Assembly (NCBI GenBank): GCA_016181175.1
Contig: JACOZV010000004.1
Location: 7,718-71,717 of the forward strand
Length of the DNA: 64,000 nt
Reading direction: 5' to 3'
DNA from: Candidatus Yanofskybacteria bacterium
GTDB taxonomy: Bacteria; Patescibacteriota; Minisyncoccia; 2-02-FULL-40-12; IGHO2-01-FULL-4-A
Below the pieces are notes generated by a model. The model did not search any database and was not told where the DNA came from. It was given only the letters and a program-made list of their open reading frames with translations. The translations under genes were made by a program, and so were the position numbers. Positions 125 to 59,371 of this stretch are shown here, piece by piece (position 1 is the stretch's first letter; each line of letters begins with the position of its first letter).

Positions 125-195
125 CGGGGGCGTCCCGACTCGAACGGGAATTGACGGTTTTGGAGACCGTAGTCCTGCCATTGAACGACGCCCCC
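125..195 (-). tRNA. tRNA-Trp (anticodon CCA)
   Basis: The reverse complement folds as a cloverleaf: acceptor GGGGGCG/CGCCCCC, anticodon loop CUCCAAA, T arm TCCCG-TTCGAGT-CGGGA. Confidence 0.85.
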
Positions 196-213
196 AAAAT
201 AGTGCTTAAGGCA

Positions 214-372
214 CTATTTTTTTGTTTCTTTGTGCATCACGTGCTTTCTGCAAAACTTGCAGAATTTCTTCATTTCGATTGTCCGCGTAACCAGTTTCTT
301 ATTTTTCGTAGAAAAATAATTGACTTGCTTGCAGATGCTGCACTTTAATTTTATTAGGTTATCTTGGGACAT
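214..372 (-). CDS. rpmG: 50S ribosomal protein L33
   Basis: The internal ATG of ORF 214..435 gives the 52-aa MSQDNLIKLKCSICKQVNYFSTKNKK...FCRKHVMHKETKK. It has typical L33 length and a CxxC...CxxH zinc-ribbon pattern. The upstream part of the ORF overlaps a tRNA. Confidence 0.9.
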   Translation of the reverse strand: MSQDNLIKLKCSICKQVNYFSTKNKKLVTRTIEMKKFCKFCRKHVMHKETKK

Positions 373-390
373 ATTGTTTATTATTAACTT

Positions 391-465
391 TGGAGCCAGC
401 GGTCGGAATCGGACCGACGCTCTTTCCCTTACCATGGGAGTGCTTTACCACTAAGCTACGCTGGC
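391..465 (-). tRNA. tRNA-Thr (anticodon GGT), CCA encoded
   Basis: Reverse complement GCCAGCGTAGCTTAGTGGTAAAGCACTCCCATGGTAAGGGAAAGAGCGTCGGTCCGATTCCGACCGCTGGCTCCA. Acceptor, D, anticodon and T stems all pair. Confidence 0.85.
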
Positions 466-469
466 ATAA

Positions 470-506
470 TACCATGGAGTTGCTCTTCCACTGAGCTACA
501 ACGGCC
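470..506 (-). pseudogene. Orphan tRNA-Thr(GGT)-like 5' half (acceptor strand through anticodon loop), no 3' half
   Basis: GGCCGTTGTAGCTCAGTGGAAGAGCAACTCCATGGTA matches 23/29 nt with the D-arm to anticodon-loop part of the adjacent tRNA-Thr. It stops at CCATGGTA, 4 nt before the intact gene. No complementary AACGGCC-bearing T arm or 3' strand follows. Confidence 0.5.
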
Positions 507-798
507 TCACACCTACTTAGCTTCAACAACACAATTCTTAATTCGCCTTTTAAGTTGCAGGTATGCGTTTCCTCTCAATTTTATACTATATTCTCTATGC
601 TTGGCATCTCCTTGCGAATAATAACTTTCATAGTATATCAGCCACCAAGGAATATTCAACTTTGTGGCTTTAACCAAACCAAAATTGTGTTGTTGGAATC
701 TTAACGTAAGATCGTGGGTATAGCCAAAGTATAATTGGCCATCTTTTTTACTTTTCAAAACATAAAAATAATACATAAAGCTAAGTAGGTGTGAGGCC
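503..798. repeat. Perfect 21-bp inverted repeat bracketing the GIY-YIG ORF
   Basis: ggcctcacacctacttagctt (503-523) is the exact reverse complement of aagctaagtaggtgtgaggcc (778-798). The heptamer aacggcc abuts both outer ends (500-506 and 799-805). Confidence 0.9.
513..776 (-). CDS. Small stand-alone GIY-YIG nuclease family protein (87 aa from the ATG)
   Basis: MYYFYVLKSKKDGQLYFGYTHDLTLRFQQHN... carries the GIY/YIG-type motifs and the length of the UPF0213-like family. The TTG-extended start at 800 lies inside the inverted repeat. Confidence 0.8.
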   Translation of the reverse strand: MYYFYVLKSKKDGQLYFGYTHDLTLRFQQHNFGLVKATKLNIPWWLIYYESYYSQGDAKHREYSIKLRGNAYLQLKRRIKNCVVEAK

Positions 799-839
799 AA
801 CGGCCTTTTTTATCAACATTTTTTAACTTTATTTTTATT

Positions 840-1054
840 CTGTGGGGGCGGTAGCGTTGAAAACCAACTGCTTGGTTTTCAACGGGAATTTTAGCTTTGC
901 CTTGTGCGAATAGCACGGCAAAGCGTTATAAAAATTCCCATGCACCGTATTCGCTAAAAGCGAACTTGATGCAAATCTGCTGCTTCGCAGCAAGTCCAGA
1001 AACATAATCGCCGTAGGTAGTTATGTTTCTGGACTCTATCTGTGGGGGCGGTAG
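840..1054. repeat. 15-bp direct repeat of the tRNA-Tyr 3' end, exactly 200 bp apart
   Basis: ctgtgggggcggtag occurs at 840-854 and at 1040-1054. The second copy is the discriminator, 3' acceptor strand and start of the T stem of the intact tRNA-Tyr. Confidence 0.85.
855..1039 (-). ncRNA. Candidate structured RNA (five consecutive hairpins) between tRNA-Tyr and its duplicated 3' end
   Basis: Hairpins read directly: 855-884 (13 bp), 884-939 (nested 9+8+4 bp), 950-964 (5 bp), 978-992 (6 bp), 994-1034 (14 bp). No ORF is present. The strand is assumed from the flanking tRNAs. Confidence 0.3.
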
Positions 1055-1126
1055 GATTTGCACCTACGTAGGCACAAGGCCAGCAGATTTACAGTCTGCC
1101 CTCGTTGACTGCTTGAGTACACCCCC
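1043..1126 (-). tRNA. tRNA-Tyr (anticodon GTA), long variable arm
   Basis: Reverse complement GGGGGTGTACTCAAGCAGTCAACGAGGGCAGACTGTAAATCTGC...GTAGGTGCAAATCCTACCGCCCCCA. Anticodon loop is CUGUAAA. Confidence 0.85.
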
Positions 1127-1142
1127 TATTTTGGCCAACCGA

Positions 1143-1217
1143 TGGAGCCGACCCCGAGATTCGAACTCGGAACCTACGCTTTACAAAAGCGTTGCTCTGC
1201 CGTTGAGCTAGATCGGC
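1143..1217 (-). tRNA. tRNA-Thr (anticodon TGT), CCA encoded
   Basis: Reverse complement GCCGATCTAGCTCAACGGCAGAGCAACGCTTTTGTAAAGCGTAGGTTCCGAGTTCGAATCTCGGGGTCGGCTCCA. Its 5' end overlaps the last codons of the upstream CDS by ~10 nt. Confidence 0.85.
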
Positions 1218-48411: not shown

Positions 48412-48904
48412 TAGGGCTTTTGATCGAGTTGAGGACGGAGGCAGGTCGCAACACACCAGAAACTACTTGATAGGTGGGTAAACGCCTTTATGGCCTATGA
48501 CTGAAAGAAGGCTTTTGCTGATCCAGAAGTGGCTATTAAACAGATATGTCAGCTACTGGCCACAATATAGTGAATTAAAAAACTACTTCCCTGGCCTATC
48601 AAAATCTGGCCCTCGGGGTTCTTTGTCTACAAAAGGTTAGAACTGGATAAAAACCGCTTAAACAAAGCACAAAAGGAAGCTCTCGCTTCCCTTCATTCAC
48701 ACTGGCTCGCTTGGCTAACCGCTTTCCGAACAACGGACTGGTCTAAAATCTTCCCATATCCATTGGTTTCTTTGAGGCAGATGCGCTACTTACTCACTTT
48801 AGTGGACTAACTTTTGCCCTCTTTTTTGCCTTTTTGAATAATTTTCGAACCGGACGACTCCAGCCCAAAAAATCGGGTACTTTACTGCTTACAATACTTT
48901 GCAT

Positions 48905-49080: not shown

Positions 49081-50559
49081 TTACATTACCAACTTCCTAT
49101 ATGCCCCATCTAAAAAAGTGTCTATTGCTCTGATCTGATTATCTCTCCTTAAATCGAGGAGTGTTTTTATATCATCGTCGTCAAGCGCGATGATAAAACC
49201 TCGATCGTCGGACGCTGTATCTTTGCATCGTTGAATGAAGCGCGTCTTGTTGGTAAAACTCCTGCATATTAACAATCCGAATCTGCCACGATTAGTAGAA
49301 AACCTACCGGACAACTGGTCGAGTTCGGGGTTAGCCGGATCAGATGAGTAATTCTTACACTCAACAAAAATATAGCTTGATGGTACTCGCTTGTTCTGCG
49401 GTAATTCCCAAAAGAACCCTTTTTTTGCAGCGTTTTCGAAAACGATATCAACTTTCTTTCTCCTTTCATGTAGCGGCTGCTCCTTTTTCGGATTTATAAG
49501 AAACGGATAAAAAATGGCAGTGAGCGCCCCTTGAATATGGTTATGGAAATTGTCTGCGTCAGCATCACCAGTATCTATACGATCCAGTTCTGCTTTTAGA
49601 GCATCGAAGTCAAAAGCTGGGCGTGCACCTATAGCATCAATGTCTTCGTTACTAATTTCTTCGAGATTGTACTGTTTACTGTCGCGATATCGTCGCAAAA
49701 CTTCCGGATGATCTTTCGAAAAAGTGTAAAGAAATTGCTTCGAATGAGGGTGAAGTTCTTTGAGTGCCTTTTTTGTAGGCGGTCTACGCGTTCCATCTTT
49801 AAGCACCCTCACAAGGGCAGAGTTCGCGCTTAAATGCTCTTCCTGTAAAAAGTTTAGTACGAAATGCTGATAGTATTCCTGATGGCTAAACTCCAAACTA
49901 AAACGCGCAACTGCTTTAGGGACAAGTAAAACATTTCTATCATTACACACCGGAAGATTAACATACTCATTAGTCCATTCATTACGAACCGTATTCCAAA
50001 CAGTGCCGCTTGGTACGTTGTGCATTGTAATACCCCAAAATATACATTCGTTTTGGGTGTACTCGATTAACTTTCCGCGAATAATGTTAGTGGTCATGTC
50101 AGATATCTTGTCATGGCTGATGCCTTCGATAAGAAGTTCGCACTCTTCAAGATCTTTAAGAAACCCAGTTCTTACAGCCGAGCTTTCAGCCAACGCATCA
50201 TATAAATCGTTCGCCTGATCTCCTCCTACACCCCTACCTCTCGGGGATCCTCCAACAGACAAACCAAAACGAGTTTGATTCGGCTCTCGCAATCCTGAAA
50301 GCATGTATTTTGCGTCATCCTTTCTATCGGCTCTGATCAAGTCGATAACTCTTTGAAAAAAATTAACGATCTGATTGTGGCAATCGATTGACCACCTATC
50401 ATTCCGCTTTGAAAGAGCATAAGGATCAATAAACAAAGGAATATCCCCATTATTTATGGGAACATCGACAAAATCGAGTTCGTACTGGCTTTTACCAAGT
50501 CGGAAGTTCTCCGAAAAGGTTTCGTATCTTCTTGGTTGTTGTGTTCTTTGTCTTGGCAT
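49081..50559 (-). CDS. 492-aa protein: unknown N-terminal ~330 aa plus a C-terminal PD-(D/E)xK (Mrr/Shedu-like) nuclease core
   Basis: The C-terminal ...KVDIVFEN...SYIFVECKNYSSDPANPELDQLSGRF...GLLICRS fits the D...(D/E)xK restriction-endonuclease-fold motif order. I do not recognise the N-terminal region. Confidence 0.55.
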   Translation of the reverse strand: MPRQRTQQPRRYETFSENFRLGKSQYELDFVDVPINNGDIPLFIDPYALSKRNDRWSIDCHNQIVNFFQRVIDLIRADRKDDAKYMLSGLREPNQTRFGLSVGGSPRGRGVGGDQANDLYDALAESSAVRTGFLKDLEECELLIEGISHDKISDMTTNIIRGKLIEYTQNECIFWGITMHNVPSGTVWNTVRNEWTNEYVNLPVCNDRNVLLVPKAVARFSLEFSHQEYYQHFVLNFLQEEHLSANSALVRVLKDGTRRPPTKKALKELHPHSKQFLYTFSKDHPEVLRRYRDSKQYNLEEISNEDIDAIGARPAFDFDALKAELDRIDTGDADADNFHNHIQGALTAIFYPFLINPKKEQPLHERRKKVDIVFENAAKKGFFWELPQNKRVPSSYIFVECKNYSSDPANPELDQLSGRFSTNRGRFGLLICRSFTNKTRFIQRCKDTASDDRGFIIALDDDDIKTLLDLRRDNQIRAIDTFLDGAYRKLVM

Positions 50560-50567
50560 GGTTCATG

Positions 50568-52250
50568 CTATTTGATCAATTTCTTATTCCAGCCCTTTGA
50601 TTTGATGAACTTGAGCGTGCCTTCGATTTCGGCTTTCCTAAACTTGTTTGGTTTCCATGCTTGAATCTTGTCATTGATCGTTGTGAGATCGTCGCTTTTT
50701 GCATCCTGCACAACCTTGCAGACGGTTGCCAAGCACTCAATTTGAGCGCTGGTGGAGTTTTTAATTGCCGGCATAAGATCATTAAGGACGGACTCCATGT
50801 TGCTCAAGATTTTTGAGTTGTATTTGAAGAGTTTACCGGAGTTAGCGCCTAAACCATAGACGCCGTTTTTTTGCTGAAAGAAGCCATTGCGAGGACTTGC
50901 GCCGGCGGTGATGGCTTTCTTAATCTGTAGATCGTAGGGGCCGAAGTTCTGCGAGGTAAAGCTGAAGCCGAGCGGTACCCTGTAAACTTCCTGCGCGAGA
51001 TATAAGAGCTTCGCCACAACCATTTCACCACGTTCAAAACGTTGCAACACCGCTCCGATGGCTTGCCACACCGGAAAGACACTTGCTTTGACAGGAACAG
51101 CAGCCACGCCCTCTTTTACCAACTCACCAGCAAGCGCTTTTGACAAGGCGGAATCAAAAAGTTCCTTCAGCTTCTCTTTTTGAACGAGAAGTCCTTTTTT
51201 ATACTCTTTAATAGCACTAAACCTCTCGGCAATGGCATGCTGGTCTGTCGTTGGTGGTACCATGATTTTTATTTTTTTAAGTGCGGTAGAGTTTACTGCG
51301 GCTTGATTTACCCACGGCGTGCATAGATAACGAAATCTATCGGTTGAATATAAGTATTGAAGATATATAGAGAAGTAGCGCGGATCTAATACTTTTTCGT
51401 TTGTGCGAATCCGAGTGATGTGATTTGAAAAGACATACTTGTAATCCTTGTCTATGTAAACGCTTTTTCCAACTAAACTAATACTGTTTGTATTATTAAA
51501 TAGGACATCACCACTCTTCAGGAAATAAGTTTCCGCATGTGGGTAATCCTGTGGAATATACTTGATGCTATCAAAGTTCAAACTACCGTCATCGCCGATA
51601 TTATTAGGTCTGATTTGTCCAATACCCTTCCCAACCGGACGGAAGGCAAAACCATTCGTAACATCGACTACTAACGCACCGATCTTTTCTTCCTTCCAGC
51701 TTTTTGACGATGATCCAAAAATCTTATTCAAAAGCGACTGAAAAAGCTGATCTGTTTTTTCAATAAGCGCATCATTGAGTTTTTGGGCTTCGCGGATAGA
51801 ATCAACACGTTCTGCAATTGCTTGTTGGGTATTTAAAGACGGCATTGGTACTCGTAAATTTTCAAGGAAGGTTCTATTCAAATGTGGTACTGCCGCTCCT
51901 TGCGCTGCTGATCTAATTTTTTGCTGATTAAATTGCAAAAGGTAAGCAAGGTATCGACTTTCCAGTGTTTCGTTATGAACCACTTTAGCAATCGTGGAAC
52001 CAACAAATCCTCTTAAACCGATACCAACGGTGCCGGCATAAGCACCATCCCAAACCAATAAAACATCGTCATTGTCGCATCGAACTCCGTTATTTTCTGA
52101 AGTGTAAAGCGTATATTGACCACTTCTTAAATTTTCAATGCCAATATAAGGCAAGGTGTCCTTTGCGGCTTCTGCTGCGGAAATCATCATTTTACCTTTC
52201 GCAAAAGAAATAAGTTCGCCTAATTTTTTTGTTTGATAATTACTTTGCAT
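50568..52250 (-). CDS. hsdS: Type I restriction-modification specificity subunit HsdS with a ~180-aa C-terminal Panacea/DUF4065 (SocA-like) extension
   Basis: Two target-recognition-domain halves are separated by conserved helices (..AIAERVDSIREAQKLNDALIEKTDQLFQSLLNKIF.. and ..AIAERFSAIKEYKKGLLVQKEKLKELFDSALSKAL). They are followed by ...VVAKLLYLAQEVYRVPLGFSFTSQNFGPYD..., which resembles the KLxKLLYxAQ...GPV core of DUF4065. Confidence 0.7.
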   Translation of the reverse strand: MQSNYQTKKLGELISFAKGKMMISAAEAAKDTLPYIGIENLRSGQYTLYTSENNGVRCDNDDVLLVWDGAYAGTVGIGLRGFVGSTIAKVVHNETLESRYLAYLLQFNQQKIRSAAQGAAVPHLNRTFLENLRVPMPSLNTQQAIAERVDSIREAQKLNDALIEKTDQLFQSLLNKIFGSSSKSWKEEKIGALVVDVTNGFAFRPVGKGIGQIRPNNIGDDGSLNFDSIKYIPQDYPHAETYFLKSGDVLFNNTNSISLVGKSVYIDKDYKYVFSNHITRIRTNEKVLDPRYFSIYLQYLYSTDRFRYLCTPWVNQAAVNSTALKKIKIMVPPTTDQHAIAERFSAIKEYKKGLLVQKEKLKELFDSALSKALAGELVKEGVAAVPVKASVFPVWQAIGAVLQRFERGEMVVAKLLYLAQEVYRVPLGFSFTSQNFGPYDLQIKKAITAGASPRNGFFQQKNGVYGLGANSGKLFKYNSKILSNMESVLNDLMPAIKNSTSAQIECLATVCKVVQDAKSDDLTTINDKIQAWKPNKFRKAEIEGTLKFIKSKGWNKKLIK

Positions 52251-54407: not shown

Positions 54408-56663
54408 TTATCGTGTACAGATCCTTTGGTTAAGCTCCGAGAGAGCGGATTGTAAAACACCTTCCTCAAACACTCGCAACGCATAATTAAGACCACCGAT
54501 TTGCCGGAAGATCGGCTCGTTGAATATGGAAATATCAACCGGCTCTTTGCGAACGATACATTGCGACTTTACCAAACGCAGGATTTTTATTTGATCGGAT
54601 GCAAAGTTTTTCTCGATTAGCCATGATTCAAAAAGCTGATTTACACGCTGCTCATGTAGTTGCTCTTCTGTAGGGAACTCCTTTGTTTTGAGTGCTGCTT
54701 GTATGAAGTCATTGAGCGTGCCTACCGGATAGCGATATGCTTCTCGCAAGTTTGCTTCGTTAAAATAGAACTCCGGAGAATTAAGTTTTTCGGAAAGGAA
54801 GGCGGTTTCGTCATTTGAAAGATCTTCGCCTTGTTTAACTTTTGAAATAAGCGGCTCGGTTTTAGCCATCTCTTGAACTTGCTGCTCCCATGCCACCTGA
54901 TAATCATCGGCATCAATTCTTTCGCCTTCTGCTCCAACTTCGATATGCGCACGCTGCATAACCACGTCCATGTTTTCGGGTGCTGTTTCCGGCACTTGAA
55001 CAAAAAGTCGCTTCACCACTTCTTCCTCTTCCTGCGTTAAATCTTCAGCTTCGGTTCCCCACGGAATACCAGCTTTAATTTTTGCATAGGCAGAATACGG
55101 ATCAAATCCTTCGTCATTGAAGTAACGAGTAACGCCAGCAAAGTCATAAATACGAAAAGATGTTTTGCTGATTTTTTGATATAATCGGCTGCCACGTCCT
55201 CGCATCTGTTGGTAAAGGATCGGGGAACGTGTAGGACGCGCCATGATCAAGTTTTCTACCATTGGGACATCGATGCCGGTATCCATCATACCCACCGAAA
55301 CCGCTACCATCGGCATTTCTTGGTGCTTAAAACGTCTTATGGCTCCACGAGGATCTTCGGTATCGGAAGTAATAACTTCAGCGTATCTTCCCTTATATTC
55401 CGGATATGTCTGATTGAGATAATACGCCAATTGCGCAGCGTGTTTTTTCGTAACAGCATAAAGAATGGTTTTGCGATGGTGTTTTGGTTCATGCTTTTCT
55501 TCTTCCTCTCTGAATGTTTTTGCCAATTGCTCGTTTCTTGCCGGCACATTGATTTTTCTCTCCAAATCTTCGGCGTTGTAATCTTCACCCTCAAATTGCA
55601 CACCTTCTAAAGACACTTTGGTGTCGATCTGTAAGATCTCATAACCAGCAAGAAATCCCTCTTTGATGCCTCGTCGAATACTGTATAGAAATGTCGGTTT
55701 ACCCTTTTTTTCACGCTCATCCCAACAACCAAAGAGCTTATAGGTGTTACGATCAATAAACACACTCGGCGTTGCTGTAAGACCTATCCGGATTGCGTCA
55801 AAATGCGATAGGACAGCGTTGTAGATGCCGAAGATGGATCTATGTGCTTCGTCCGAGATAACCACATCAAAATAACCACTTGTAAAATTCGATAGTTGCG
55901 AATAAAGAGTGGGAAGTGTCGAGATGATTATTGAGGATTCGTCTTTTTGCTTGCCTCCGTAAAGAAGCTTTGTAGGATAATCTTTCAAAATTTCATCAAA
56001 AACTTCCTTTGTTTGTATGCCTAAATCAATGCGATCAACAAGAAATAAAACACGCCGGATGAGATTCGCTTCAAACAGCCGTTTGAGATAAAGAGCTATG
56101 GTATCTGTCTTGCCAGTGCCGGTTGCCATAGCGATGAGCATTTTGCGCAAACCGCCCTCAATGGTTTTGTCCATGATCTGCATGGCCTCCTTTTGATATG
56201 GGCGTGGTGTGCGTAATTCGCCACCTTTAAAATAATTGTCGGGTACAGGAATGGCGGTTATCGGCTTTTGATCTATTCGTAGGGTTTGGATTTTTTCTAA
56301 ATCGCGTTGAGAAAAGAAGGTAATTACCTTTTGCTCTGGACGATATTTGTAATCCCAAAAATAAATATCCTCTCCATTGGAAAGGAAAATGAAATCGATA
56401 CCCAGCTCTTCTGCGTAGGTCAATGCCTGCTGTTTTGCCAATACTGGTTCAGTTGAAAACCGCTTTGCTTCGATAAGCCCGATGGCTCTGCCGCGTCTAT
56501 CCCTCAAGAAATAATCGGCACGTCCATCCTTCACCGGATCTTCGGTTGAAACTTGATTTTTATCCTCAATATCCCAGCCAGCTTCGCGGAGTTTGCGATC
56601 GATGACAATGCGAGCGTCCGTTTCTCTTGAGTTGTTATTGTTATTTGTCATATTCATTTTCAT
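54408..56663 (-). CDS. hsdR: Type I restriction enzyme R subunit (nuclease plus SF2 helicase)
   Basis: N-terminal PD-(D/E)xK (ADYFL...IGLIEAKR), Walker A MATGTGKT, DEAH (ISDEAHRS) and later helicase motifs. 2-nt gap to hsdM. Confidence 0.85.
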   Translation of the reverse strand: MKMNMTNNNNNSRETDARIVIDRKLREAGWDIEDKNQVSTEDPVKDGRADYFLRDRRGRAIGLIEAKRFSTEPVLAKQQALTYAEELGIDFIFLSNGEDIYFWDYKYRPEQKVITFFSQRDLEKIQTLRIDQKPITAIPVPDNYFKGGELRTPRPYQKEAMQIMDKTIEGGLRKMLIAMATGTGKTDTIALYLKRLFEANLIRRVLFLVDRIDLGIQTKEVFDEILKDYPTKLLYGGKQKDESSIIISTLPTLYSQLSNFTSGYFDVVISDEAHRSIFGIYNAVLSHFDAIRIGLTATPSVFIDRNTYKLFGCWDEREKKGKPTFLYSIRRGIKEGFLAGYEILQIDTKVSLEGVQFEGEDYNAEDLERKINVPARNEQLAKTFREEEEKHEPKHHRKTILYAVTKKHAAQLAYYLNQTYPEYKGRYAEVITSDTEDPRGAIRRFKHQEMPMVAVSVGMMDTGIDVPMVENLIMARPTRSPILYQQMRGRGSRLYQKISKTSFRIYDFAGVTRYFNDEGFDPYSAYAKIKAGIPWGTEAEDLTQEEEEVVKRLFVQVPETAPENMDVVMQRAHIEVGAEGERIDADDYQVAWEQQVQEMAKTEPLISKVKQGEDLSNDETAFLSEKLNSPEFYFNEANLREAYRYPVGTLNDFIQAALKTKEFPTEEQLHEQRVNQLFESWLIEKNFASDQIKILRLVKSQCIVRKEPVDISIFNEPIFRQIGGLNYALRVFEEGVLQSALSELNQRICTR

Positions 56664-56676
56664 TCTTGAGCTTGAT

Positions 56677-58476
56677 CTATAAATTCTCGTAATACCCCCT
56701 GATCTTTTTCGCCATGAGTTTGCGGCGTTCCTTCAAAAACCTTTCGTAATCCCCAAGCTCCATATTCTGAAAGCCATCCGGTATGCAATTCTGTTTTAGG
56801 TTCTCGGCGAGATCTTTTTTATCGGTTATGCCGCCATACTTGAGCTTGCCTCCTTCGGTTTGTTTCATTACTTCAGCCATGTACTCTTTGGGAGATTTTT
56901 TGCCGACTTTGATATTTATTTCAGATTGAGCATAAGTAAAGTTGCCAATCTGGTTGTAATCGCCCCTACTTAAGCCGCCTGCTTTCTTCAGGTATTCCTT
57001 TGGAAAGAGATGATGGATGTCGCCGCGATGACTGATCATATTACCAACGGTAATGTCGGTTGAAAGAAAGCCCCTGTCGTTATTTTTAACCTGTGCCGCA
57101 AAAAAAAGATTGAGAAATGGATTGCTGATGCTCGCCTTATCGAGTTCCTGAATAAGCTGCGCGTTCCAAAAAGCATCGGAGAGTTGCGCTTCTTCGATTG
57201 ATTTCAAAATCTCGCCAGCATCGCCATTGGAAATCTGCTTAATATCCGAATCAAATTGGCTTTCCGGTGATCCGGAATAACGTCCGGTGAGGATAGACAT
57301 CACAAACCAGCGTTGGACATACTTTTCGATCAAGCTTGGATCGACACTCTTATCGCGCAGCTTGAGATATAAAATATAGGCAAAGTTAAGAGCGTTTTGC
57401 GAATTGATAAGGTCGTTGCTTATAAAGCCGCAGGATTTGATGATCATTACAAACCGCTTGAAGTTTGTTTCATTTACAAAATCCAGTACCGCATCACGGA
57501 GTTTTTGGAAAGACGCATCCATTATGTCTTGCTCAAAACTGCGTGTTTCAAAGTTACGCCCCGAAAGCAGTCCGACAAGATCCGCCATCTTGCCTCGTTC
57601 AAATTGTTTGGTGAAACTCACACGCAACACATCGGAATAATCCGGATCGTAGAGGTCGTCATTTTCATCTTTAAGCCATGCAAGTTTTGAAAGGTAAACA
57701 GTTTTGTTAAACTCTGCATCATTTTCAGTTATGTGTTTGTAAAACTGCGGCTCGCGCGCAAGATGGCAAAAATAGTCGACACACTTTCTTAAATTAACGC
57801 CGAAATTATCCTCCTTGTCATAAGAAGCTATCTTCGACATGGCAAAGTCAGCTTGGCTTAATACAACACCTTTGGAATTGATACGGATAAAAATCTCGGT
57901 AACCGTTTCAATATCTAAACCGGCATCAAGTTCAATAAAACCAACCTGCTTGCTTTTGATCTGTAATAACTTCTCAATGTTCTTTTCAATGAGTTCACGA
58001 TTTACGTCAAGATTTTTGTCGCAATAGTCAGTTACATCTTTGAATAAGCCGCCGTCCTTACTCATAAGTTTTGAGATGTCAGCTATCCACGCCTTGTCCT
58101 TTTTTATTGCCGGTGTGAGTGTGGCAAATTCTTCTATGATGGGGTGAAATGCAATATAGATCCGTTCCTCCTTATAATCTTTATTGATAATGTTTTGACC
58201 GAGAATTGCCGCACGGAGAGCGGTAATGCGTTGCTGTCCGTCAATCAAGACCTTTTTGCCGTTGGAAATGGAGCCATCTTTAAGACGAACATCGGGGTTT
58301 TTCCATGCAATGATATAGCCGATCGGATAGCCACGATAAAGCGAATCCATCAGATCGCGCACCTTTGTCGAATCCCAAACAAACGGACGCTGGATTTCCG
58401 GTATAGCGATTTCCTTTTCCTGAACCCAATTCAGGATATTGCTCACAAAGTATTGATTGACTGTGTATTTTTGCAT
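56677..58476 (-). CDS. GmrSD/BrxU-like type IV restriction enzyme (DUF262 plus DUF1524)
   Basis: IPEIQRPFVW and LIDGQQRITAL (DUF262/ParB-like NTPase). The C-terminal His-Me finger context is GDIHHLFPKEYL (DUF1524). Start taken at MQKYTVNQ. Confidence 0.8.
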   Translation of the reverse strand: MQKYTVNQYFVSNILNWVQEKEIAIPEIQRPFVWDSTKVRDLMDSLYRGYPIGYIIAWKNPDVRLKDGSISNGKKVLIDGQQRITALRAAILGQNIINKDYKEERIYIAFHPIIEEFATLTPAIKKDKAWIADISKLMSKDGGLFKDVTDYCDKNLDVNRELIEKNIEKLLQIKSKQVGFIELDAGLDIETVTEIFIRINSKGVVLSQADFAMSKIASYDKEDNFGVNLRKCVDYFCHLAREPQFYKHITENDAEFNKTVYLSKLAWLKDENDDLYDPDYSDVLRVSFTKQFERGKMADLVGLLSGRNFETRSFEQDIMDASFQKLRDAVLDFVNETNFKRFVMIIKSCGFISNDLINSQNALNFAYILYLKLRDKSVDPSLIEKYVQRWFVMSILTGRYSGSPESQFDSDIKQISNGDAGEILKSIEEAQLSDAFWNAQLIQELDKASISNPFLNLFFAAQVKNNDRGFLSTDITVGNMISHRGDIHHLFPKEYLKKAGGLSRGDYNQIGNFTYAQSEINIKVGKKSPKEYMAEVMKQTEGGKLKYGGITDKKDLAENLKQNCIPDGFQNMELGDYERFLKERRKLMAKKIRGYYENL

Positions 58477-58477
58477 A

Positions 58478-58666
58478 TTACTTTTTTGGTTTCTTGATAT
58501 TCGATCGAGAACGAATAAACGCCTCGAGATCGCTCTCGCTGATCCGCCAATAGCCGACTTTGGTCGCCTTGAGCCGCCCACTCGAAATATAGCGATACAA
58601 GGATCGCTCGCTAACTCGCAAATACTTTGCCGCTTCACGTAATGTAAGAAATTTCTTTTTGGTCAT
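58478..58666 (-). CDS. Excisionase-family (MerR-like) helix-turn-helix DNA-binding protein
   Basis: FLTLREAAKYLRVSERSLYRYISSGRLKATKVGYWRISESDLEAFI is the classic HTH_17/Xis pattern. Its stop abuts the GmrSD-like start. Confidence 0.75.
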   Translation of the reverse strand: MTKKKFLTLREAAKYLRVSERSLYRYISSGRLKATKVGYWRISESDLEAFIRSRSNIKKPKK

Positions 58667-58681
58667 AGGTCAATTGATTTC

Positions 58682-58717
58682 ATTCTATCGCAAAAAAGCC
58701 ACATGGTCAAATGTGGC
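58682..58717 (-). promoter_or_regulatory. Sigma70-type promoter of the defence operon with an overlapping palindromic operator
   Basis: Minus strand reads TTGACC (58710-58705), a 17-nt spacer, then TAGAAT (58687-58682). The palindrome GCCACAT-N6-ATGTGGC (58698-58717) covers the -35. Confidence 0.5.
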
Positions 58718-59098: not shown

Positions 59099-59371
59099 AG
59101 TTTTGTGAGCGGCGAGTTTTGAAACACAAAACCCACCACTGGGAGGGCTTGCGCCCCTATGGAAGTTTCCCTCCATAACGTTAGGCACGCCCCAAATGAT
59201 GGGTTTTCTATGCCTAACGATTTGCGACCATGCCGCCAGCCGAAGCCGATGGTTTAGATCATTTGATATCCAATTGTGTTTTTAAGTATATCAGAAAAAC
59301 ATGAGATCCTGCAACGGATGAAAAATACTGCTGGTCAAATGTGGCAAGGTCTGCTAAAATGAGTTTTAAGA

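Follow-up and report, generated by a model that had tools for sequence, protein, structure and literature searches.

A DarG-like C-terminal domain on a type I restriction specificity subunit of a Candidatus Yanofskybacteria bacterium

An HsdS protein with an additional domain

The window analyzed here, a 64,000-nt stretch of a Candidatus Yanofskybacteria genome (GenBank assembly GCA_016181175.1, contig JACOZV010000004.1, positions 7,718 to 71,717 of the forward strand), carries a type I restriction-modification (RM) locus whose hsdS gene encodes a 560-amino-acid (aa) specificity subunit with an extra domain at its C-terminus. The gene belongs to a six-gene block on the minus strand, arranged head to tail and bounded by a promoter-like site and a terminator-like hairpin, in the order GmrSD-type gene, hsdR, hsdM, a 209-aa gene, the extended hsdS and a 492-aa gene (Table 1). 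The stop codon of the 209-aa gene overlaps the start of hsdS, as read from the sequence, and the 492-aa gene begins 8 nt past the hsdS stop. Altogether our results leave us highly confident that the protein is a complete HsdS bearing a C-terminal domain that resembles the C-terminal domain of the antitoxin DarG and belongs to the Panacea superfamily.

The specificity subunit proper ends at about residue 378, where an original prediction made from the sequence had placed its end. Pfam finds two Methylase_S matches in this part of the protein (E = 5.7e-34) and its alignment to the PADLOC Specificity_I model PDLC03107 spans the whole model (protein residues 4-377 against profile positions 2-392 of 392, E = 4.8e-65). 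With two target-recognition domains (TRDs) and their conserved helices, and with hsdM and hsdR encoded on the same strand, it has the features of a type I specificity subunit. The ~180 further residues described by the prediction are likewise present and contain the peptide it had quoted, VVAKLLYLAQEVYRVPLGFSFTSQNFGPYD, at aa ~409-438. An AlphaFold2 model of this tail, built from a five-sequence alignment, has a mean predicted local distance difference test score (pLDDT) of 86 and a predicted template-modeling (TM) score of 0.81, with disorder confined to the first 7 linker residues (pLDDT below 50). On this model the remaining ~180 aa form a real folded domain rather than a read-through tail. 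The span first assigned to the domain, 50568-51113, takes in the linker, the domain and the stop codon; the domain proper is slightly shorter (Table 1).

Comparison with the closest relative that we found (P0017, at locus L012) shows how differently the parts of the protein have been maintained. The tails of the two proteins are ~70% identical, making this the best-conserved region, and the conserved helices align, but the TRDs are unrelated. The tail is retained as TRDs are exchanged, and in this the domain resembles the constant scaffold regions that contact invariant partners. The same architecture is present in about 30 independent genomic and metagenomic loci, and thus the fusion is not an artifact of assembly or a frameshift.

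Kinship with DarG and Panacea

Profile and structure comparisons identify the tail as a clear homolog of the C-terminal, DarT-binding domain of DarG. The PADLOC DarG model matches the tail with E = 6.5e-11 across its C-terminal half (profile positions 169-326 of 329), and the NCBIfam DarG model matches it with E = 6e-7. A phmmer search of PDB sequences with the tail alone returned no match; a profile built from 35 family members was the only query to reach 7YK3, the Mycobacterium tuberculosis DarG C-terminal domain in complex with DarT (chain B, E = 2e-6, profile positions 32-185 of 197). In a Foldseek search of the PDB with the tail model, chains D and B of this same complex were the sole convincing matches (TM 0.69 and 0.66, probability 1.0), and the next in rank were the winged-helix regulators PadR, ZitR/MarR and PrfA at TM ~0.34 or less. 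The BFVD collection of viral folds, searched with the same model, gave no informative match. When plasmids were searched with the tail by tblastn, the only matches were "macro domain-containing" proteins of Cytobacillus, bona fide DarG that adjoin DarT and share 30% identity with the tail. The motifs L.K..Y, FGPYD, E.LAT and W..K..F are common to these DarG proteins and the tail family.

The relationship to DarG is nonetheless an old one. No macrodomain-containing DarG is found among the best 150 clusters of the tail profile search described below, and the tail family thus represents a separate, old branch relative to DarG. The 560-aa protein itself has no Macro match in Pfam. What the tail shares with the C-terminal domain of DarG, as seen in DarTG2 (7YK3), is homology of fold and sequence over the whole domain. 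It differs in being carried by HsdS instead of a macrodomain, in lacking both a macrodomain and a nearby DarT, and in being basic where the DarG domain is near-neutral.

The domain had originally been labeled DUF4065/Panacea, and this label survives in part. The tail is an antitoxin-type, toxin-binding domain and distant kin of Panacea, but it is not a member of PF13274 and its nearest kin is the C-terminal domain of DarG, so that the similarity expected of it was found with DarG, by profile and by fold, and fell below threshold for PF13274. SocA_Panacea (PF13274) is the only Pfam match of the tail (E = 0.02, profile positions 2-113 of 113), and its score of 16.2 bits lies below the curated gathering score of 25.7 bits. 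The same is true of every family member tested (best relative E = 2e-4; best listed score 20.5 bits). Sub-threshold matches to SocA_Panacea are present in 6 of 60 sampled relatives and in 8 of 10 stand-alone members, with E values from 2e-4 to 0.4, and the alignments are collinear wherever coordinates are listed.

We also compared the tail family with PanA directly, using the validated PanA of the Burkholderia prophage phi52237 (annotated DUF4065) together with 47 relatives labeled PF13274. Alignment of the two families with hhalign spans 102 columns and gives E = 3e-4, albeit with a probability of only 39%, and pairs the motif AK..YL with QKLAYF and FGPYD with FGPV. An AlphaFold model of the PanA family (pLDDT 96) has 7YK3_B as its best match in the PDB, although this match is weak (TM 0.45, probability 0.69), and a narrow profile of PanA sequences fails to find 7YK3 with HMMER. 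Homology between DUF4065 proteins and the C-terminal domain of DarG is stated in a 2026 paper (PMC13621843). These data suggest that the tail probably belongs to a DarG-CTD (C-terminal domain)/Panacea superfamily, near DarG and far from Panacea, with the tail family sitting between the two in sequence space.

Recurrence, carriers and gene neighborhoods

Searching 1.84 billion protein representatives with the tail profile yielded 218 clusters at E <= 1e-3, including 49 at E <= 1e-30. Among the best 150 of these, 89 are represented by proteins of at least 500 aa, in all of which the domain ends within 35 aa of the C-terminus; 15 more are 300-499 aa long, and the remainder consists of fragments and of ~19 stand-alone proteins 160-200 aa in length. 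Every long protein sampled contains Methylase_S (34 of 34). Conservation of the domain extends over more than 200 clusters, with identities as low as ~25% and invariant core residues, and the fusion is spread over several phyla (Patescibacteria, Bacteroidota and Gammaproteobacteria), occurs with at least two types of HsdR and is found in both gene orders. A scan of viral contigs found no relatives of the tail. Proteins with the fusion therefore constitute a sub-family of type I specificity subunits that is rare but recurrent and, as the search for other HsdS proteins with C-terminal extensions makes clear, no one-off. We considered whether the tail might be the long C-terminus typical of some common type of HsdS. 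This is ruled out, as no HsdS in 72,556 plasmids matched it and the tail is found in only 218 clusters of the very large protein collection searched.

The fusion has escaped annotation. Named examples, in Chryseobacterium for instance, are annotated just as "restriction endonuclease subunit S", and the domain occupies the C-terminal ~180 positions of the PADLOC Specificity_I models PDLC03196, PDLC03088 and PDLC03184 and of the MTase_I model PDLC03039, so that the fusion is already present, unannotated, in RM model collections. Our literature search found no paper joining DUF4065, Panacea or DarG to an HsdS fusion, in agreement with the original prediction, which knew of no description of this architecture. 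The widely conserved N-terminal additions to PanA are a helix-turn-helix (HTH) domain and PAD1 only, with HsdS not among them (PMC8832971).

Three kinds of carrier bear the domain. In addition to full-length HsdS, it is found on half-size HsdS proteins with a single TRD (~375 aa), whose dimer-based complex would hold two copies of the domain. In Patescibacteria it also ends a single chain of 855-864 aa in which HsdM is joined to one TRD; hsdR follows directly after these genes, and the pair would constitute a two-gene type I system. A candidate second copy of the domain, on HsdM in a Chryseobacterium locus, was rejected on inspection.

The genomic context of the fusion was examined in about 30 loci, four of them from species genomes (Patescibacteria, two Saccharibacteria and one gammaproteobacterial metagenome-assembled genome), 19 metagenomic and the rest obtained by exact look-up. 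The only genes common to these loci are hsdM and hsdR, which are present in every locus with enough flanking sequence. About 20 loci have the order hsdM-hsdS-hsdR, with hsdR starting 1-5 nt after the fusion gene or overlapping it. In the remaining loci the order is hsdR-hsdM-hsdS, followed by varied defense cargo: Cas4 with RNase H, HARE-HTH with PDDEXK, a dCTP-deaminase defense gene, a Septu-like pair with GmrSD, or HigB/HTH. At least two families are represented among the HsdR partners, one of the EcoEI_R_C type (743-822 aa) and the other of the T1RH-like_C type (~1,020-1,090 aa). Aside from hsdM and hsdR, no neighboring gene is conserved across these loci, and no conserved toxin gene accompanies the fusion. 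Searches by tblastn found no DarT at E <= 1 in 600 kb of the window and loci, and no DarG macrodomain in the window or 44 other loci; PF14487 is absent from the precomputed Pfam labels of neighboring genes in the related loci.

Two further features of these neighborhoods were observed. Small accessory genes of the PD-(D/E)xK type (PDC-S18/DUF5655, DUF4268 and HARE-HTH+PDDEXK_5) repeatedly flank the type I operons, and one related metagenomic contig carries, downstream of the operon, a gene for a reverse transcriptase (RVT_1) of 502 aa (Table 1).

Some relatives of the domain are not fused to HsdS. Two stand-alone members, P0134 and P0152, directly follow genes of ~420 aa with HD and HD_assoc_2 domains (dGTPase-like), forming two-gene modules that are a possible undescribed toxin-antitoxin or defense module. 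On the Tunicatimonas pelagia plasmid NZ_CP120684.1, a 203-aa protein without a Pfam match is paired with a 268-aa protein that ends in the domain. This pair lies in a defense island beside a ThiF/multiubiquitin/DUF6527 cluster and a type III-like RM system. Such two-gene modules with putative effectors recall those of PanA and indicate that the superfamily's habit of pairing with effectors holds in this branch. The tail on HsdS, by contrast, has no conserved adjacent toxin gene, and its locus is not of the two- or three-gene form that defines PanAT.

Table 1. Coordinates of the features discussed. Positions without a locus label are those of the window; labels beginning with L denote other loci.
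Feature	Position	Strand	Basis or remark
hsdS-extension gene, 560 aa plus stop	50568..52250	-	open reading frame without internal stop; Methylase_S x2; PADLOC Specificity_I
HsdS core, aa 1-378, two TRDs and two conserved helices	51117..52250	-	PADLOC PDLC03107
Linker, aa ~379-390	51081..51116	-	low pLDDT; family profile match begins at aa 387
DarG-C-terminal-domain-like (Panacea-superfamily) domain, aa ~391-560	50571..51080	-	DarG models, 7YK3 similarity
hsdM, 509 aa	52876..54405	-	Pfam N6_Mtase 1.1e-61, HsdM_N 7.3e-12
hsdR, 751 aa, EcoEI-type C-terminus	54408..56663	-	Pfam ResIII, Helicase_C, HSDR_N, EcoEI_R_C
209-aa orphan between hsdM and hsdS, hydrophobic N-terminal segment	52240..52869	-	no family match
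492-aa DUF8370 (PF28123)/PADLOC PDC-M36A protein	49081..50559	-	PADLOC, phrog_27295, Pfam
GmrSD-type (DUF262) type IV restriction gene, first of apparent operon	56677..58638	-	Pfam GmrSD_N 6.8e-33; PADLOC HEC-05 7.3e-32
Promoter-like site upstream of six-gene block	58682..58710	-	TTGACC-17-TAGAAT, 10/12 matches; consensus match only
Terminator-like hairpin downstream of 492-aa gene	48669..48696	-	12-bp stem then T-rich tail; consensus match only
LOOT RNA (Rfam RF03000)	59144-59260	-	71 bits against a gathering score of 46
Four tRNA genes	125-1217	-	
Half-size HsdS with domain	L018 5501-6637; L021 2861-3988; L028 7437-8573		
Single-chain HsdM, one TRD and domain	L005 7946-10540; L027 5946-8540; L019 205-2772		
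PD-(D/E)xK-type accessory genes	L006 11930-12832; L007 13020-13946; L029 9439-10467; L008 10521-11261; L012 1651-2439		
Reverse-transcriptase (RVT_1) gene, 502 aa	L001 4669-6177		
Stand-alone ~180-aa member after ~420-aa HD + HD_assoc_2 gene	L039 473-2294; L040 205-2022		
203-aa and 268-aa pair, plasmid NZ_CP120684.1	L045 7115-8561		

Possible functions of the fused domain

Type I enzymes need to be restrained from cutting their own chromosome once modification lapses. ClpXP-dependent restriction alleviation is known for some of them and, to our knowledge, the mechanism of alleviation is understood for few model enzymes only. The fusion described here is a concrete candidate for a new element of control or sensing in restriction complexes, and one that can be tested. 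It also widens the known reach of the DarG-CTD/Panacea superfamily, hitherto one of free-standing antitoxins, to include a subunit of a multi-protein nuclease. We tentatively favor, with less than even confidence, a model in which the domain binds a partner within its own restriction complex, most plausibly HsdR, and thereby controls restriction. The ancestral role of the superfamily, binding a partner protein and holding it in check, would be retained, with the partner now a member of the restriction complex. HsdR would be the likeliest candidate, being the one constant component with the potential for self-harm and having its gene directly after the fusion gene in about 20 loci. From its anchorage at the end of the HsdS coiled coil, the domain could dock or restrain HsdR, either directly, as DarG restrains DarT, or by handing it to a protease, as SocA hands SocB to ClpXP. 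There are precedents for each of these activities: DarG sequesters DarT (PMC12255303, PMC8832971), PanA-PanT complexes have been shown by pull-down (PMC8832971), and SocA, a Panacea-family type VI antitoxin of Caulobacter, controls the toxin SocB by delivering it to the protease ClpXP (PMC8832971). SocA is a possible model for HsdR control by analogy, its homology to the tail being remote.

Several observations weigh against this model, in which contact between the domain and HsdR is something that we infer. The fused domains are strongly basic, with a median isoelectric point (pI) of 9.3 and, for the modeled tail of the window protein (aa 382-560), a pI of 9.8 and a net charge of +13. In comparison, the C-terminal domain of Cytobacillus DarG has a pI of 6.4 and many stand-alone relatives have a pI of ~5. 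A charge of this kind fits contact with nucleic acid at least as well as sequestration of a protein. The N-terminal half of the tail model weakly resembles winged-helix regulators (PadR/MarR, TM ~0.33). The domain occurs with different HsdR families, and contact with HsdR would thus need a feature that these families share. Finally, the adjacency of hsdR is weak evidence because the order hsdM-hsdS-hsdR is ordinary in type I operons.

A more specific proposal, which is possible but doubtful, is that a type I sub-family has captured a DarG/Panacea-type toxin-binding domain for its own endonuclease; HsdR would then stand in the place of the toxin, and HsdS in that of an antitoxin tethered to the complex. 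Were this so, the fusion would be a built-in device for restriction alleviation, or a switch that could be tripped by phage anti-restriction proteins, and would provide a direct mechanistic bridge between toxin-antitoxin and RM systems.

The basic charge and the winged-helix matches raise an alternative that we regard as rather unlikely, namely that the domain has been re-purposed as a basic, winged-helix-like accessory that binds nucleic acid, making non-specific DNA contacts or autoregulating the operon, and has lost its ability to bind a toxin. That the domain is joined to a DNA-binding subunit is consistent with this idea. However, the HsdS core of the window protein has a similar pI (9.1), so the basicity may merely reflect composition, and the structural matches that rank after 7YK3 are weak. 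Moreover, the activity that has been characterized in this superfamily is protein binding, as in the DarG-DarT complex of 7YK3 and the PanA-PanT pull-downs, and the regulation of transcription by PanA has been ascribed, as a proposal, to its separate N-terminal HTH domain (PMC8832971). If the domain were a DNA-binding add-on, the outcome would be more modest: an unannotated accessory domain of HsdS.

It is also conceivable, though unlikely, that the domain acts in trans as a guard or decoy that binds a phage anti-restriction protein, such as the acidic DNA mimic Ocr or ArdA, or a DarT-like toxin of a mobile element, so that the enzyme is protected or the domain serves as an anti-addiction antitoxin. 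A function in trans would be in keeping with the absence of a conserved partner in cis other than hsdM and hsdR, and a basic surface would suit acidic DNA-mimic inhibitors. Orphan antitoxin-like proteins of phages that counter DarTG are known (PMC11825919, PMC11481870), and the closest characterized relative of the domain binds DarT. Yet the argument is purely inferential: DarT is absent from the 64-kb window and from all related loci, and no reason is apparent for tethering an anti-DarT function to HsdS.

The original prediction went further in proposing that the tethered domain neutralizes a toxin encoded next to it, either the 492-aa DUF8370 nuclease-like protein or the 209-aa membrane protein or both, such that loss or inhibition of the complex would free the toxin. 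The logic is that of PrrC/EcoprrI, in which a latent anticodon nuclease is held in check by a type I enzyme and the complex acts as the antitoxin for an effector encoded inside the hsd operon. The hsd operon of the window likewise houses two additional genes, both of them hard against hsdS, with no strong promoter or terminator motif between these genes and with the terminator-like hairpin placed after the 492-aa gene. The 492-aa protein matches the defense candidate PDC-M36A (PADLOC, 2.1e-48) and phrog_27295 (3.6e-105), its homologs carry the DUF8370 label (PF28123), and its C-terminus has a weak Mrr-like PD-(D/E)xK nuclease match (Pfam Mrr_cat, E = 0.23; VDIVFEN...FVECKNY, a possible D...ExK motif). 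Panacea-type domains swap partners readily (PMC8832971), and loci of the hsdR-hsdM-hsdS type often have a different nuclease or effector after the fusion, including the Cas4/RNase H, HARE-HTH+PDDEXK, dCTP deaminase and Septu-like cargo listed above.

The comparative evidence makes such coupling quite improbable, and this part of the prediction found no support. There is no PrrC-like protein in the window, and the two embedded genes are not conserved with the fusion. Neither has a homolog in any of about 30 related loci, including that of the closest relative, where hsdM directly abuts hsdS and the gene fragment downstream is unrelated to the 492-aa gene. About 20 loci simply have hsdR as the next gene, and variable defense genes beside type I operons are normal for defense islands. 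In addition, the DUF8370 family has more than 2,900 homologs, many of them in Patescibacteria, which lie alone in defense islands or beside unrelated systems with no tail-type domain nearby; at one such locus (L043) the neighbor is a type II system, MvaI_BcnI, with a methyltransferase joined to a LexA-like domain. Since DUF8370 is widespread without the domain, the 492-aa protein does not depend on the tail and has no need of it as an antitoxin. The 209-aa protein had no match in Pfam, NCBIfam, PADLOC or PHROGs, and a literature search for "PDC-M36" found nothing. From these sequence comparisons we infer that the 209-aa and 492-aa genes are probably unrelated, window-specific defense-island cargo inserted into the operon. 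Two candidate homologs of the 492-aa gene were rejected: a 34-aa gene fragment that follows hsdS at the locus of the closest relative is unrelated in sequence, and a 491-aa protein after hsdS in locus L033, although similar in length, is a fusion of Cas4 and RNase H.

The least probable explanation, and in our view a very improbable one, is that the domain is a functionless relic of a darTG cassette that lay between hsdS and hsdR and was fused to hsdS by deletion, for the conservation of the domain in more than 200 clusters with its core residues invariant, its rank as the most conserved region when close relatives are compared, its confidently predicted fold, its presence in several phyla and three carrier architectures and its old split from DarG all argue against it. 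The deletion itself is a plausible origin of the fusion and is no argument for lack of function. DarTG2 is found between hsdS and hsdR in enteropathogenic Escherichia coli (EPEC) and other Gammaproteobacteria (PMC12255303), and one deletion starting in the 3' end of hsdS and running past darT and the macrodomain would leave hsdS joined to the C-terminal domain of darG and followed by hsdR, which is the commonest arrangement of the fusion. The RptR-RMS-DarTG-M48 island of EPEC resembles the window in having a DarG-type module tied to an hsdM-hsdS-...-hsdR operon, in the slot between hsdS and hsdR (PMC12255303). It differs in that darT and darG are separate and complete in EPEC, whereas the window has only the DarT-binding-type domain, translationally fused to HsdS, and no toxin.

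Two features of the window outside the six-gene block complete its description: a LOOT RNA lies just upstream of the GmrSD/hsd block, and four tRNA genes are clustered at the start of the window (Table 1).

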